Positions 463-6,280 of a stretch of 23,462 bases of DNA are shown piece after piece. The notes beneath the pieces are model-generated. The model saw nothing but the letters and a program-made list of their open reading frames with translations, did no database searches and was not told the DNA's origin. Where the stretch lies: the IMG/VR virus record IMGVR_UViG_2698536369_000027, positions 1-23,462 of that record. One strand, written 5' to 3'. The position numbers were made by a program, and so were the translations under genes. Origin of the DNA: a virus (taxonomy: Duplodnaviria > Heunggongvirae > Uroviricota > Caudoviricetes). Each line of letters begins with the position of its first letter. Positions within the stretch are counted from its first letter, which is position 1.

Positions 463-2679
463 CTACACTTCCCACCATCCTTGTGCTCCTGACATCTTGA
501 TAAATGTTTTTGACCATCCATTTCCTGTTTTTGTTTCCGTGCCAACACTTAGAGGCACTATTCTATTTTCGGATGCTGTACTGCTAAATATAAACGTAAC
601 ACTAGAGGATAAAGATACTCCGCGTATCACCACTCTGTCTCCGGGCTTACCTCCTGTGATTGTGTCAATGCTTTTAGTTGCGGACGATATCCATACATTG
701 CCATGCGAGAATGGAAGTACTGATCCAGTCAATGACTCAAGGGGTTTTGATGGGCATGGCTCACCATAGATTTGTGGGTCGTTTACACCTGCTGGAATAA
801 GCAGTGTGGAGTTATACTTATTACCTGATCCATAAAGAGTTGGCTCAGTTGCTCCGCTCCATGTAATAGGGTAATGAGCAACAGATTTCATAGTAAAATC
901 GTTATCACGCAACCTTAAAATGCACGCCTGAGCATTGATATACGTTAAGGCACCGCTGTTTGCCATCGCGTCAAACCAGTTGCTTCTGAATGTGGCGTCA
1001 GCGTTGTTGAAAACAACAACCGGGTCGAGTTGAGATGCTGCTGATGAACCCCAGAGATGCGCCTTGAAGGTGCAGTTTTGTACCTTCATTCCTTTGACAC
1101 TTCCTATGCGCATGAACTGGAAGCAGTTTTTTAGAATAACGCCATCAACAATAATTGCCCCATCAGAGAAGAATGAAGGGTTTATTGCTGGTTGGGCATG
1201 TAACCCACGAAATGCCGAGTCGATGTTACCGCCTAAAATATGAACCTTGCCCATATTACCGAAAATTCGGTAAGCAGTACTCAAGTCAACTTTAGTTGAC
1301 TGCACCTCGCAGTTGATAAACATAAACGTGTGATCGAAGTTTGACCATGAAGGTAGCGGGTCGCCAGTGGAGCCGTCTTTGTCGGTGGTAATAATCTGGA
1401 CGCTGGAGTTAGCGTATACAGTGTCATCGCTGAACTTAATCTTCATGTTTTCGAAGATAACGTTCTGCGAATAACGCGTAATTCCACGGTCTCCAGAGTA
1501 GCAATAACAAGCTGACTTCGTGTTGTAGGCTGTGATGTTGAGAAAATACGCGTTGTAGCATGATGCCACTCGCCACCATCCATCACAGGTAGACACGTTT
1601 TCTACATTAAACCGCTCGACATGAATATTGTAAGGATGCAAACCATTTGTCATGGTTGAGTTTGTTGCTGGGTTTTCCGGTGCCAGACCATACTCAAAGT
1701 TACATCCAAATTTCCAAGGCCCTCCACTTATCAGGCAGTCATGCAGTCTAATGCCATCTAATTCCCCCATTCCGCAAACAACAAACCCATTGTTTAAACC
1801 TTTCCCTGTAACATTATAAATTCTGTCAATCTCAACGTCACTGGTCATTGCACTTCCAAGATATTGACCACCGACCCAAATCATTACAGTTTGAGGCGCT
1901 GATGGATTGCTGGCGGTTGCATCTGCCCTTGTTTCTGCAACGTCATATACAAAGTTGGATATGCGGACTTTTTTTGAATTGTAAACGACGAAAGTATGGT
2001 TCGCGCGACCACCTGATGTAGGAATAAACCCTTGGACGTTATCCATTATCTTCGCGCCATTGAAGTTCAGCGTGATATTACTGACTCCAATGCATTGCAC
2101 GGTGCCGGTAAGGAGATACGTACTGGATGGATTGCCAATAAACTCCACACCCACGCCGCTGTAGGTGGTGATGGCGGTGTTTAGCGCTGCAGAGCTATCA
2201 AGAACACCCGACTTATCTACGCCCGGCAGATCGTCGATAAACATGAATACACGATCAAGGTATTGCGTGAGATTAACGCCGCCCTTGGTACCAATCAGGT
2301 TTGTTCCTGGAGGGTCAAATGAAGCTAATTGCTGACTGAACTGATCAGGATCATACTTCAGCACATTAGGGAAATAGAATTGCCGCGCCCCATACGCATC
2401 ATAAACAGCCATAGAATGGCCTTGCTCAGTTACGAACTTGGTAATCTGTCCATTATATACAGGGTAACCAGCAGCGTTAATGATGATTGGTTGCGAAACA
2501 GGAACGTGAGAGCCGTCTTCGTTTTCCACATAAACCTGAATCTGGTTTTCAGGATTTACCGGGTCAGTATCAATTTTTCCGATATAAATTTTGCCATTGG
2601 CTACGGCTTTAAAAGAACGCGCCATAGTGAAGAGTTGCGAAGGCATCGATACGATCACATTGGCTGTAATGTCTGTCAT
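463..2679 (-). CDS. Tailspike protein with P22 gp9-like N-terminal head-binding domain and a divergent receptor-binding domain
   Basis: 738-aa ORF; first ~110 aa ([13 protein letters not shown]...[33 protein letters not shown]...VLKYDPDQ) match the P22 tailspike N-terminus from memory; remainder is different and longer than P22 (667 aa). Confidence 0.9.
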
Positions 2680-2737
2680 TTAATTTGCTCCAGATGCAAG
2701 GAATCGCCGCAGCATGGCTACGGTGAATTTTGGGCAT

Positions 2738-2761
2738 AAAAAAAACCCAGCCGAAGCTGGG
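2738..2761 (-). terminator. Rho-independent terminator between the KilA-N gene and the tailspike gene
   Basis: Minus-strand sense CCCAGC-TTCG-GCTGGG followed by TTTTTTTT: 6-bp GC-rich stem, UUCG tetraloop, 8-U tail. Confidence 0.75.
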
Positions 2762-2780
2762 TCGTTGCGTTGGTTATCTG

Positions 2781-3671
2781 TCAGTAGTTATGTACTGAAG
2801 GAGGTAATTCTTTATTCTTAAGTCTCATCCATGCGGAACGATTCGTTGGTCCGTCTGGCTCATTAATATCAACATCTAGTGTGTGATTGATTAAAACGTC
2901 TCTCGCTATATCGATAATACGGGAGAACTCATAACCGCAGTCATGACATCTGCCGGAATAGTTCGATTGAATTTGTTTCAGCGCCGGATACAATTCGCGG
3001 AATAATGCCTGTGAGCGGTTGGCATAATCCCATAACCATACAAGGCTGTTTGCTTCTTTTGCAGAAAGCTCGTTGGTTTTCTTCTCTTGTTTGCCGATAA
3101 ATTCACCTTCAAGCACTACCCTGTGGATGTACTCTACGGCCAGCGGGATTTGTTCAATTGAAAGTTCATCAATGCTGTCAATACCAAAACGCTGATGAAC
3201 CATATTGTATGCATCGTCATAGCGAAGTCCTTTCTTTCCTACCAGCATGTTTACTGCATCGCGTAGCGGTGTGCGTTCAGCTACTGAAGTTTTACCGCCA
3301 ATACTCTTCCTCTCTTGTGTGGCAGTAACCATTGCGTCATATGCACGGATAACCTTCAGCGCAAATGCTGCGCTAATCCACATGGCGTAGGAGTAAACAA
3401 GCTCCTTGCACACGTAGGTTCCACCATATCGACCTTTCTTAGAAAGGACGGGATTCTTATTCTGCATATCCGCAGAATTAAAAATTTCATTAATCAATTC
3501 AATAGTTTCATTTCTACGCATGAAGAAAGCTGGCTGATGTTTTTCCTCCTTTCCAGACGCTACATGAAGGTCATTAAGCGAGTAACGACCCTCTGAATCC
3601 ATATGAATCTTGACGTCAGAAATGATGATGCTATTAGTGCAATTTACAGTTGACTTTGCTAAGCTTGACAT
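2781..3671 (-). CDS. KilA-N domain antirepressor-like protein (in the ant position of an immI region)
   Basis: ORF to stop at 2781; N-terminal region has KilA-N-like motifs (GRYSLNDL ... [29 protein letters not shown]); preferred start is ATG 3669-3671 with upstream GAGG; alternative GTG at 3735-3737 overlaps the upstream ORF stop. Confidence 0.65.
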
Positions 3672-3733
3672 ATCAATAATACCTCGTAAGTTTTGTTGAT
3701 ACCGAAGCCCTGACTGTTCCCGCAGTTGGGGCT

Positions 3734-3955
3734 TCACTGTTTTTGTAAGTCACTGTAGCTATAAAGCCACTGACCACTCATTTTTGATTTGATTGACTCT
3801 ACTGAGTCACGGCAAGGAATGATTCCGCCTGACATCATTCTGATCTCCGTAAATTCACCACTCCTTATCGATTCAATGCCATCAATGTTAACTAAAGATT
3901 TACCTCTACCAAGTGCATTCTCATAGCCAATCTCATCAACCTCAATAAACCTCAT
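3734..3955 (-). CDS. Hypothetical 73-aa protein, translationally coupled to arc
   Basis: ATG 3953-3955 overlaps the arc stop codon (ATGA-type overlap); its own stop overlaps the GTG of the downstream ORF; no recognisable domain. Confidence 0.5.
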
Positions 3956-4110
3956 GCCGTTATCCCCTCTCTCTTCAGGCTGTCCAACACTCGCTTGTAA
4001 ATCTCAGAGTTAACAGATCGCCCGTTCTCTTCAGCTACCTTGCGCACCAAATCCAATACTTCTTTAGGCCACCGCAAATTGAACTGCGGCATTTTGCTCA
4101 TTCCTTTCAT
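3952..4110 (-). CDS. arc: Arc transcriptional repressor (ribbon-helix-helix)
   Basis: Translation [52 protein letters not shown] is near-identical to P22 Arc (53 aa, from memory); ATG 4108-4110 preceded by GAGGTGA RBS; the longer ORF-track start at 4173 would read through its own operator. Confidence 0.9.
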   Translation of the reverse strand: MKGMSKMPQFNLRWPKEVLDLVRKVAEENGRSVNSEIYKRVLDSLKREGITA

Positions 4111-4123
4111 ATTCACCTCACAA

Positions 4124-4146
4124 TATGGGTCCACCGTGAACCTATT
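4124..4146 (-). promoter_or_regulatory. Mnt operator-like palindrome
   Basis: Minus-sense AGGTTCACGGTGGACCC, one mismatch from the P22 Mnt operator core GGTCCACGGTGGACC as I recall it; lies between the Pant -10 and the arc start. Confidence 0.6.
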
Positions 4147-4149
4147 GAG

Positions 4150-4178
4150 AATATAGTAGAGTGCTTCTATCATGTCAA
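4150..4178 (-). promoter_or_regulatory. Pant-like promoter with embedded Arc operator
   Basis: Minus-sense TTGACA - 17 nt - TATATT; the spacer plus flanks read ATGATAGAAGCACTCTACTAT, which matches the 21-bp P22 Arc operator from memory. Confidence 0.75.
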
Positions 4179-4200
4179 TACACTAACTTGGGGTGATGGC

Positions 4201-4455
4201 ATGGCTAGAGACGATCCGCACTTTAACTTCCGTATGCCTTTGGAAGTAAGAGAAAAATTGAAATTAAGAGCAGAGGCTAACGGAAGGTCAATGAACTCTG
4301 AGTTATTACAAATCGTTCAGGATGCTCTCTCAAAGCCATCATCAATTGTAGGCTATCGAGACGAAGCTGAGCGAGTCGCGGATGAGCAATCTGACGTTGT
4401 TAAGAAGATGGTCTTTGAAACGCTGAAAAATATTTATAGCAAAAGTAAGTTATAG
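4201..4455 (+). CDS. mnt: Mnt repressor (maintenance of lysogeny; represses Pant)
   Basis: 84-aa translation MARDDPHFNFRMPLEVREKLKLRAEANGRSMNSELLQIVQDALSKP... is near-identical to P22 Mnt from memory; divergent from arc. Confidence 0.9.
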   Translation: MARDDPHFNFRMPLEVREKLKLRAEANGRSMNSELLQIVQDALSKPSSIVGYRDEAERVADEQSDVVKKMVFETLKNIYSKSKL

Positions 4456-4504: not shown

Positions 4505-5224
4505 ATGAAAAAAAGCAATGGACTCACATTAAAACTTGACGGAACCACCCCTGGCCAGCTGTCAATGGCTAAGTTGGTCAAGTATATGTCTGCTCTCGTA
4601 GATCTATACGGTTCTGCAGATTCTGTTCACTTCGACTGTGTAAGTGAAGGATCGGCTGACTTAAATGCATGGGTCGATAATGATATTTGTTATAACGCTG
4701 TCATAGCAAGGGCCTCTCTCTCAGCCAAAGAGAAATCACCCGCGTATCAAAAAATTGTTAATTTACTGGAACATGATGGTTTTTCAGCGAAACTACTCGG
4801 ACGAAACCACTCAACCATTATCGCATTCCCGCGAGTAAAAAAGGAGCCAATCCCTTTACTCATAACAAAAACATCAGAAGTTCAAGGAAGGCTATACAGT
4901 GTTGGCGGAAAAGACAACTCAATACCTGTGCGTATTGAGGGAGCCAACGGTGAAACATTCAAGTGCGAGGCAACCCCTGATTTGGCGGCAGCTCTTGGGT
5001 CCCATCTATTCAAATATATTAGGGTTAAAGGAGATGGGTGCTGGGAAAAAAAGAACAACAAATGGGAGCTAAAGAAACTAAAAATAACTTCATTTGTATT
5101 GCTCAAAAAATCATCACTCAAGGATGCTATTAATGCTATCAAGCAAGTTCCTGGAGATCAGTGGTCCGAGGAACGCGATGTTGATTCAATCCTTAGGACT
5201 CTGAGGAAGATAAATTGCGAGTAA
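4505..5224 (+). CDS. Hypothetical 239-aa protein, first gene of the cargo cassette and partner of the PIN nuclease
   Basis: ATG at 4505 is the first start codon after an in-frame stop; no Walker A, HEPN or other motif seen; AT-rich with K-rich C-terminal third; stop overlaps the downstream PIN gene by 10 nt. Confidence 0.6.
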   Translation: MKKSNGLTLKLDGTTPGQLSMAKLVKYMSALVDLYGSADSVHFDCVSEGSADLNAWVDNDICYNAVIARASLSAKEKSPAYQKIVNLLEHDGFSAKLLGRNHSTIIAFPRVKKEPIPLLITKTSEVQGRLYSVGGKDNSIPVRIEGANGETFKCEATPDLAAALGSHLFKYIRVKGDGCWEKKNNKWELKKLKITSFVLLKKSSLKDAINAIKQVPGDQWSEERDVDSILRTLRKINCE

Positions 5225-5763
5225 TTTTAGATACCAATATTCTGGTATACCTACTATCAGATATAGAACACGATTATAGATTATCTGACCCTATACTTGG
5301 TTCTGAGATTCCAGATGCCAAAAGAAGAGCAGAAGCTCTTGTTGATCGAATAGATAACAAGAACGGGACAATCATCGTTCCAACTCCTGTATTGGCGGAG
5401 TTTTTAGTTGGAATCCATAAAGATTACCAACAAGAAAAACTGAATGTTATCAAATCGTTATCGTGCTTCGAAACTGTATCATTTGATGAGTTGGCTGCTA
5501 TTGAATGCGCATCGATACCAACATTAAAAGAATTAAGGAAAATTAGCACAGAAGGTACAGCAAACAAAATTAAGTTTGACAGACAAATAATAGCAATTGC
5601 AAGAGCAATTAATGCTGACGAGGTATGGACTCATGATAAGGGAGTGTTTGAGCGTTGCAAAAGTCTCAATATTCCTGTGTTCACATTATCATCAATAGAA
5701 CCAATTCCGGTTCAAAGTCTCATGGAGTTCTTACACGATTCAGACGATCAGAGATTACACTAA
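5215..5763 (+). CDS. PIN-domain nuclease (VapC-like fold, 182 aa)
   Basis: TTG start at 5215 with GAGGAAGA RBS 5-7 nt upstream; N-terminus RVILDTNILV is a classic PIN beta1 motif; candidate acidic residues D6, E62 (LAEFLVG), D122 (KFDRQIIAIARA), D141 (WTHDKG). Confidence 0.7.
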   Translation: MRVILDTNILVYLLSDIEHDYRLSDPILGSEIPDAKRRAEALVDRIDNKNGTIIVPTPVLAEFLVGIHKDYQQEKLNVIKSLSCFETVSFDELAAIECASIPTLKELRKISTEGTANKIKFDRQIIAIARAINADEVWTHDKGVFERCKSLNIPVFTLSSIEPIPVQSLMEFLHDSDDQRLH

Positions 5764-5890
5764 AATATAATTTTTATGCATCCGTGATAATTACATCCGT
5801 CACTGATACATAAAGCTATAGCCAAAAGTGGACAAACCTTTATCTCACTCCAAACCATCTGGTATCCTGCTAAAAACTAAGGAGGTTGGT

Positions 5891-6280
5891 GTGAAGCAAT
5901 TTCTTGCTGCTATGTTCTTATTCATATCTTTTGGGGCTACAGCAGAGTGCTGGGTCGTTGGAGATATGCGCGGAATAAGCTATTCAGAACGAAATAATTT
6001 CCATCCGGAAGAAGATGGTTTTAGTGGAACATTCATCATTAAGACAAGCGGTGAAGATGCCAGCATCACATATTCTGGGACAGATGCGGGTGGCATGGCT
6101 TACAAAGCATTGTCTAAAAACTCCATCATAGGAATCGGCGCGAATGGCGAAACTCAACGCGTTATCGACTCATGGGTAATACATCCTACTGGAACAGTTT
6201 TAATGTCAAAAACCATTTCCGGTTATGGAAATATGGATTCAACCAAAGCTTTTGTTGGAAAAGTAAAAAGAAAATGTTAG
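5891..6280 (+). CDS. Small exported protein with N-terminal Sec-type signal peptide (~129 aa)
   Basis: GTG at 5891 preceded by AGGAGG with 5-nt spacing; N-terminus VKQFLAAMFLFISFGATAE is a hydrophobic signal peptide with a likely A-x-A-type cleavage site; the ORF-track start at 5828 is GTG without an RBS. Confidence 0.6.
   Translation: MKQFLAAMFLFISFGATAECWVVGDMRGISYSERNNFHPEEDGFSGTFIIKTSGEDASITYSGTDAGGMAYKALSKNSIIGIGANGETQRVIDSWVIHPTGTVLMSKTISGYGNMDSTKAFVGKVKRKC

Follow-up and report, generated by a model that had tools for sequence, protein, structure and literature searches.

orf73, a small arc-coupled gene in a P22-type immI module with a domain-shuffled antirepressor

The immI region of phage P22 is a textbook regulatory circuit in which two repressors are combined with an antisense RNA and with Ant, an antirepressor expected in regions of this type to inactivate C2-type repressors. 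Here we analyze a version of this region found in the IMG/VR virus record IMGVR_UViG_2698536369_000027, whose entire stretch of 23,462 nucleotides is termed the window below, and in particular orf73, an additional gene for a 73-residue protein situated between arc and ant. The portal, coat, injection and tailspike genes of the window find their matches in P22-like phages of Escherichia coli and Salmonella, and the immI region has the injection-protein genes on one side and the tailspike gene on the other, as in P22 and epsilon34; going by this gene content, the window is the late and immI part of a P22-like (Lederbergvirus) phage or prophage genome. On the minus strand the order of elements is tailspike gene, terminator, ant, a 62-nt spacer, orf73 and arc, with mnt lying divergently on the plus strand. 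An original prediction, made from the sequence alone, had read this locus as a near-P22 mnt-arc control region followed by a different downstream gene pair, namely a candidate new 73-residue component of the antirepressor circuit and a KilA-N domain protein, with the spacer encoding the Sar antisense RNA lost.

Control elements and antirepressor of the immI locus

The first element of that prediction, i.e. that mnt, arc, Pant and both operators closely resemble those of P22, is borne out by Pfam matches, a promoter scan and comparison with P22. The arc gene (3952-4110, minus strand) encodes a 52-residue protein consisting of only the ribbon-helix-helix (RHH) domain (Pfam Arc, 91.9 bits), of which the N-terminal 49 residues show 88% identity to P22 Arc. 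The 84-residue product of mnt (4201-4455, plus strand; Pfam Arc and Repressor_Mnt) is 82% identical to P22 Mnt, and its N-terminal residues 1-13 match, the exception being position 14. Between the two genes lie overlapping divergent promoters together with the Arc operator (4145-4178). Pant, TTGACA-17-TATATT (4178-4150, minus strand), has 11 of 12 consensus matches, and Pmnt, TTGAGA-17-TATCAT (4145-4173, plus strand), has 10 of 12, with the overlap layout and the hexamers of both being the same as in P22. The Arc operator (4153-4173) is identical to its P22 counterpart at 21/21 positions, while the Mnt operator (4127-4143), placed by alignment with P22 and the P22 annotation, agrees at 15/17. 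On the minus strand the latter reads AGGTTCACGGTGGACCC as against AGGTCCACGGTGGACCT in P22, the two substitutions disrupting the dyad symmetry; the DNA-reading N-terminal residues of Mnt are unchanged despite them, and Mnt could bind this altered operator more weakly.

The gene downstream of orf73 (2781-3671, minus strand) encodes a 296-residue protein with a KilA-N domain at residues 20-115 (PF04383, 68.8 bits against a threshold of 23.8), as had been predicted, and a P22_AR_C domain at residues 197-269 (97.1 bits). Its residues 127-296 are 83% identical to residues 131-300 of P22 Ant (170 aa), whereas the N-terminal 126 residues yield no alignment with P22 Ant. An alignment to P22 Ant over the whole protein is therefore not obtained, in agreement with the prediction, since only the C-terminal part aligns, with KilA-N standing in place of the P22_AR_N domain of the canonical P22_AR_N + P22_AR_C architecture. 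However, the proposal of a new gene, and with it of a different downstream gene pair, does not hold because this conserved C-terminal part marks the protein as Ant: on the strength of its domain composition it is a domain-swapped, non-canonical variant of Ant rather than a different gene. Its N-terminal domain is approximately 98% identical to that of the 'ant' of phage Emek, beyond which the nearest relatives show at most 58% identity, and sister loci encode Bro-N + P22_AR_C or P22_AR_N + P22_AR_C combinations. Iyer, Koonin and Aravind are said to have established in 2002 that KilA-N, Bro-N and P22_AR domains shuffle among phage regulators. The KilA-N + P22_AR_C protein of the window differs in nothing essential from such domain-shuffled antirepressors; what is added here is the conservation, across the swaps, of the first codons that carry the sar promoter (see below).

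Three further observations concern Ant. The KilA-N part, over aa 73-124 of Ant, matches the PADLOC candidate-system model PDC-S22 (E 8e-11), which is probably a shared-domain match and not evidence for a role in defence. In one related locus (L014) the C-terminal half of Ant past ..GEFIGKQE is swapped for unrelated sequence, and in E. coli NZ_CP169309 (H57) an IS2 element lies within the KilA-N ant region.

The sar RNA and its promoter within ant

As arc and orf73 overlap, the original prediction had inferred the loss of sar for want of an intercistronic spacer to encode it. The spacer has instead moved: it is constituted by the 62 nt between orf73 and ant (3672-3733) and contains sar, which extends over 3672-3745 of the plus strand with stem-loop I, a terminator hairpin (3704-3735) and a U-run. 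The Rfam model RF00262 (sar) matches 3673-3738 of this strand with 61.7 bits (E 8e-12; gathering score 43 bits), covering model positions 1-68 of 68. In BLAST comparisons, a 36-nt block just past orf73 (3701-3736), within which the greater part of the annotated sar terminator falls, shows 100% identity with the arc-ant spacer of epsilon34 and 97% with that of P22; the terminator hairpin is identical to that of epsilon34 and is recovered by a terminator scan. The minimum-energy fold of the 75-nt sar stretch consists of the two sar hairpins (z = -5.46), and the loop of hairpin I presents CCUC, an anti-Shine-Dalgarno motif, opposite the Shine-Dalgarno sequence in the ribosome-binding site of ant. 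The pairing is upheld across nine distinct variants from different Ant types, with 99.4% of the proposed-pair cells being standard, compared to 27-53% paired in slid controls, and two stem-I pairs are altered on both sides, i.e. they covary across the Ant types.

A putative promoter for this RNA, Psar, is embedded in ant codons 3-12 (3637-3665, plus strand). It comprises GTGCAA (3637-3642), a 17-nt spacer, TGc (3657-3659) and TAAGCT (3660-3665), in the layout of the annotated P22 Psar, GTGTTA-17-TATACT with TGc just upstream, which likewise lies opposite ant codons 3-12. The TGc and the register are the same in both, with the extended -10 element of the window lying opposite ant codons 3-5, and the nTG at the -35 position as well as TGn-TAnnCT are retained in every Ant N-domain type. 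Judged from these comparisons sar is present in the window, and we infer that it is expressed. Alternatively, the sar-like sequence might be a relic whose hairpin is retained for a different purpose, the KilA-N variant making no functional antisense RNA. Consistent with a relic, only 3/6 positions of the -10 hexamer match the consensus, a generic promoter scan of the window makes no call at Psar, and the KilA-N-type loci are mutually identical, leaving no within-type variation as a test. Nevertheless, we regard this as unlikely. The Rfam match is full-length, including a stem I with compensatory changes relative to P22, and the TGn of the extended -10, its TA...T positions and the -35 nTG recur in one register across all Ant types. 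The negative promoter scan was given no weight because the same scan overlooks the annotated Psar of P22, as it does the P22 sar terminator.

The position of Psar bears on the N-termini of the Ants themselves. A leader of the form M-x-S-[ILV]-A, which in the Ant of the window reads M-x-S-L-A, occupies the first five codons and persists across the KilA-N, Bro-N and P22_AR_N Ants, the Pfam domains of which start only at residues 12-20, after the leader. As the leader, within ant codons 1-12 (window positions 3636-3671), coincides on the opposite strand with the extended -10 of Psar, we attribute its conservation to a dual-coding constraint.

orf73 and the slot between arc and the sar terminator

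The 73-codon open reading frame (ORF) at 3734-3955 of the minus strand is coupled to arc in the manner originally described: its ATG overlaps the arc stop codon as ATGA, with a Shine-Dalgarno sequence, GAGGGG, 8 nt 5' of the start, and its TGA stop is shared with the first bases of the sar hairpin. Alignment also agrees with the earlier view that its product, an acidic protein (pI 5.0), is unlike P22 Ant, there being no similarity between the two. The family is a small one, comprising 7-8 clusters in 5.8 billion proteins; an exhaustive HMMER search of 1.84 billion representative proteins returned only one divergent homologue (65% identity, 84 aa), along with one deletion variant and one spurious repeat protein. 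Neither a profile search with a six-member alignment nor a scan of contigs from one genome per species yielded further confirmed relatives. The protein corresponds to phrog_11805, of unknown function, and has no PADLOC match and no Pfam match above threshold. The gene occurs in 51 of 5426 complete E. coli genomes, by itself approximately 1% of them, each time adjoining an Arc gene, and the family is known only directly 3' of arc.

The divergent homologue (in locus L020) is likewise coupled to arc, via a GTGA overlap, and differs from orf73 by an in-frame 11-codon insertion; the two genes show a dN/dS of 0.23 at a dS of about 1.1, while pN/pS among seven close orf73 alleles ranges from 0 to 0.85. 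The shortness of orf73 and its lack of a characterised homologue might suggest a chance ORF or an untranslated leader. The likelihood of this is negligible, as it is contradicted by the dN/dS, the in-frame indel and the conserved Shine-Dalgarno sequence and coupled start, and is further opposed by a confidently predicted fold on which single-sequence and alignment-based models agree. These coding signatures mark orf73 as a genuine cistron of the Pant operon that encodes a conserved protein. Variant alleles were also encountered (P0007, 45 aa, in 9 contigs; P0002, 90 aa; P0006, 48 aa), which have lost the internal residues aa 34-61 in frame, read through at the C-terminus into the hairpin, or are truncated, indicating occasional decay of the gene.

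The structural model of the orf73 protein (pLDDT 81.6) contains five strands and a helix, and thereby has a RemA-like five-strand-plus-helix fold. Its best fold matches in BFVD are phage 'Flagellar and swarming motility' proteins (TM 0.70/0.78); FlbD (PF06289) is the sole Pfam family matched, by 6/6 members (best E 0.007), while a sequence-profile search of the PDB with orf73 returned nothing meaningful. SwrD, a member of the FlbD family, has been described in a 2026 preprint as adopting a RemA-like fold and forming hexameric rings, without the DNA-binding insertion or motifs of RemA, in which a helical insertion between strands 3 and 4 bears the DNA-binding Arg51 and Arg53 (PMC13232269). The orf73 model has a 3-residue turn (residues 33-35) between strands 3 and 4 in place of the helical insertion. 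Because of this short turn, as in SwrD, and the acidic pI, we describe the predicted fold as SwrD/FlbD/RemA-like without assigning the protein to any of these families. It shares with SwrD/FlbD and RemA its size, the five strands plus helix and the best fold matches, but differs from SwrD/FlbD in that the match is sub-threshold and the flagellar context is missing, and from RemA in having no DNA-binding insertion. Going by the model, the protein is probably a small beta protein of SwrD/FlbD-like kind whose action depends on contacts with other proteins, and by analogy with SwrD it possibly forms a ring. A RemA-like fold also raises the alternative that immI has in orf73 a third regulator that binds DNA, directed at immI or at host genes, which wraps or binds DNA in the manner of RemA or LytTR domains; we hold this to be quite improbable, given the short turn where RemA carries its arginine-bearing insertion, the acidity of the protein, and the reported absence of DNA-binding motifs in SwrD, which has the same fold (PMC13232269).

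That orf73 is a dedicated partner of the KilA-N protein is not supported by their co-occurrence: across 17 orf73 loci the next Ant is of the KilA-N, Bro-N, P22 or divergent P22_AR_N type, and at least three Arc/Mnt specificity types lie upstream. To survey the position that orf73 occupies, we scanned IMG/VR for the sar terminator hairpin, requiring the exact hairpin pattern, and obtained at least 120 stretches. The census of the slot between arc and the hairpin rests on 97 non-redundant analysable loci, including the window, among the matches listed (henceforth the listed loci). In 50 of these Arc itself stops at the hairpin, as in P22, whereas in 42 the space separating arc from the hairpin is taken up by a small gene, which belongs to one of six unrelated families; the other five comprise two singleton ORFs and three loci without an ORF of at least 30 aa ending at the hairpin. 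The six families, hereafter cargo, are a four-cysteine (Cys4) protein of 40-67 aa (19 listed loci), orf73 (7), a 57-aa family with no Pfam hint (6), an 89-aa protein with an apparent hydrophobic N-terminal segment, read by eye, and weak DUF matches only (5), a 74-aa cysteine-rich protein (3) and an 80-aa protein (2). Cargo accompanies each of the four Ant N-domain types, and four of the six families are associated with at least two of these types; KilA-N Ants also occur with other cargo genes or none.

The two flanks of the slot are conserved in nucleotide sequence. The cargo start overlaps the arc stop, as ATGA or GTGA, in 39/42 listed loci, and in all 39 Arc ends in ..[IY]KR[VL]xDSLKREG.., whereas cargo-free Arc mostly ends in ..ESFKKEGRIGA. 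The C-terminus of Arc in the window is of the cargo-associated form. The left flank has the general form GACAGCCTGAAGAGAGAGGGGATAACGGT followed by ATGA; it is the 3' end of arc, GACAGCCTGAAGAGAGAGGGGATAACGG(T/C)ATGA, which supplies both a Shine-Dalgarno sequence and the overlapping start codon. The right flank, common to all families, is an A-run plus T joined to GAAGCCCC of the sar terminator. It supplies the stop codon, so that each cargo ORF stops at a TGA formed with the hairpin, and the C-terminal lysine codons of the cargo are the complement of the terminator U-run. Dual coding therefore explains odd conserved residues on two counts: Psar lies within the first codons of four non-homologous Ant N-domains, and the C-terminal lysines of the cargo stem from the U-run of the sar terminator. 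The conserved flanks further provide an easy criterion by which genes of this sort can be collected from P22-like prophages.

Some of the other cargo proteins offer hints as to their affinities. The commonest, the Cys4 protein (L027, L033, L062 and others), weakly matches the ClpX N-terminal zinc finger, with sub-threshold Pfam E-values of 0.037 and 0.0015, and the 74-aa cysteine-rich protein also has a weak ClpX zinc-finger match; the Cys4 protein may mimic or compete with the zinc-binding domain of ClpX. The 80-aa family (L061, L134), which is unrelated in sequence to orf73, comes near the FlbD threshold (E 1.7e-4, 21.5 bits against 24.7), and therefore two of the six families may share a SwrD/FlbD-like fold.

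The module, the role of orf73 and neighbouring genes

Taking the behaviour of the P22 circuit as a guide, strong transcription from Pant after infection would yield an arc-orf73-ant message; Arc would accumulate and then shut off Pant at its operator, and in a lysogen the Mnt expressed from Pmnt, which is divergent, would keep Pant repressed at the Mnt operator. The sar RNA would start at the extended -10 promoter within the first ant codons and pair with the ant ribosome-binding site, thereby blocking translation of Ant. As the 3' flank of arc supplies its Shine-Dalgarno sequence and overlapping start, orf73 would be translated together with Arc, as part of the arc translational unit, and would lie, except for its last codons, upstream of the block imposed by sar on ant. 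Accordingly conceived, immI would act as an expression platform with an early, self-limiting Pant burst, possible late read-through, and silencing by Mnt in the lysogen.

We conclude with reasonable confidence that the window holds a complete P22-type immI module with a domain-shuffled Ant, and that orf73 is most likely interchangeable cargo and not part of the core circuit. The slot is exchangeable and is flanked by conserved joints, and accessory cargo on the immI platform is the most economical reading of this. It is fairly improbable that, as first proposed, control by arc-ant/sar has given way to a new functional pair consisting of orf73 and the KilA-N protein, in which orf73 would be dedicated to modulating the antirepressor. 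The constant location of orf73 in the Pant operon between arc and ant, and its being found nowhere else in either protein collection, would accord with such a pair. It is countered by the retention of sar, by the association of orf73 with four Ant N-domains and of the KilA-N Ant with other cargo or none, and by the presence of five unrelated families in the same slot. That part of the prediction which saw orf73 as a component of the antirepressor circuit keeps a minor probability, weakened as it is by the five other families that take its place, with the same flanks, in related phages. Arc and orf73 also bring to mind a type II toxin-antitoxin pair, with an autorepressing RHH protein upstream, a small gene overlapping it by 4 nt and the corresponding gene order. 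We rejected this very improbable alternative, as the 52-residue Arc has no C-terminal toxin-binding extension, no toxin family is matched in Pfam or PADLOC, and the slot is empty in half of the listed loci, which have the same kind of Arc.

Several points weigh against the interpretation of orf73 as cargo of a complete module. Its cargo nature is deduced from exchangeability, and differing families could all tune the same circuit. The slot statistics derive from the matches listed for an exact-hairpin pattern in a redundant viral collection. The -10 of the KilA-N-type Psar is the weakest of all types, and sar output could therefore be low. As for the fold, the FlbD score of orf73 (14.6 bits) is below the Pfam threshold of 24.7, and the model was built on a shallow alignment of six sequences. 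Furthermore, when orf73 was compared by hhalign with the FlbD-like slot family of 80 aa, the match lacked significance (probability 3.7%), and homology between these two is not claimed.

With respect to its role, silence in the lysogen argues against lysogenic conversion or prophage defence and favours a function during infection. We give about an even chance to orf73 being infection-phase cargo unrelated to Ant, with a part in counter-defence, host takeover or exclusion; a modulator of the Ant/repressor decision is a minority possibility, and some other role takes up the remainder. More broadly, we tentatively suggest, as a possibility well short of probable, that the stretch from the arc stop to the sar terminator serves specifically for the exchange of cassettes encoding small infection-phase effectors, of which orf73 is one, with a new target. 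Its cargo would then include beta proteins resembling SwrD/FlbD, proteins resembling the ClpX zinc finger and a small membrane protein, and the self-limiting Pant burst would deliver the effector right after DNA entry, with silencing in the lysogen. If the cargo genes do encode counter-defence or host-takeover factors, the slot would be a compact place to discover them. Natural immI variants have, in any case, taken up a third cistron that is translationally coupled and comes from one or another of at least six unrelated families, without disturbance of the control elements, and immI can therefore be viewed also as an expression platform for accessory genes.

Several of these features have precedents. 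P22 and epsilon34 have in common with the window the divergent Pant and Pmnt as well as both operators, that of Arc being identical and that of Mnt nearly so. The window differs from them in the extra cistron between arc and the sar terminator, the altered C-terminal tail of Arc, KilA-N instead of P22_AR_N in Ant, the sequences of the sar body and Psar hexamers, and two substitutions in the Mnt operator. The arc-orf73-ant arrangement is already in GenBank, in two phages that both have orf73 annotated as hypothetical. Salmonella phage vB_SemP_Emek (JQ806763) shows 97% nucleotide identity over window positions 2700-4119; its genes likewise run arc, orf73, KilA-N ant, and its orf73 protein is 100% identical; its Arc N-terminus, Mnt and operators differ from those of the window, implying a different immI specificity. 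In E. coli phage vB_EcoP-611R6 a 96% identical orf73 occupies the same slot, but there the Ant is the canonical one with P22_AR_N, and Arc/Mnt are of a further type. That the 'ant moron' is variable has been described before in general terms (PMC2629481), and our literature search found no paper on orf73, its fold, or the arc-ant/arc-sar slot as a cassette site.

Beyond ant lies a Rho-independent terminator (2744-2763, minus strand; terminator scan), which is also annotated in Emek, P22 and epsilon34, and then the tailspike gene (463-2679, minus strand). Farther still, at 1-387 of the minus strand, there is a C-terminal Peptidase_S24 fragment (LexA/UmuD/CI-type) cut by the left edge of the window. 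On the other side, mnt is followed by two ORFs that together cover 4505-5763 (plus strand), one of 239 aa, with no Pfam or PADLOC match, which overlaps by 10 nt the other, for a 182-aa PIN-domain protein (PF01850, E 4e-10), and then by a 150-aa ORF with no match (5828-6280, plus strand). These three are co-oriented with mnt and sit where P22 has sieA; the 239-aa and PIN ORFs may constitute a PIN-based module of two genes that the prophage expresses for exclusion, for defence or as a toxin.

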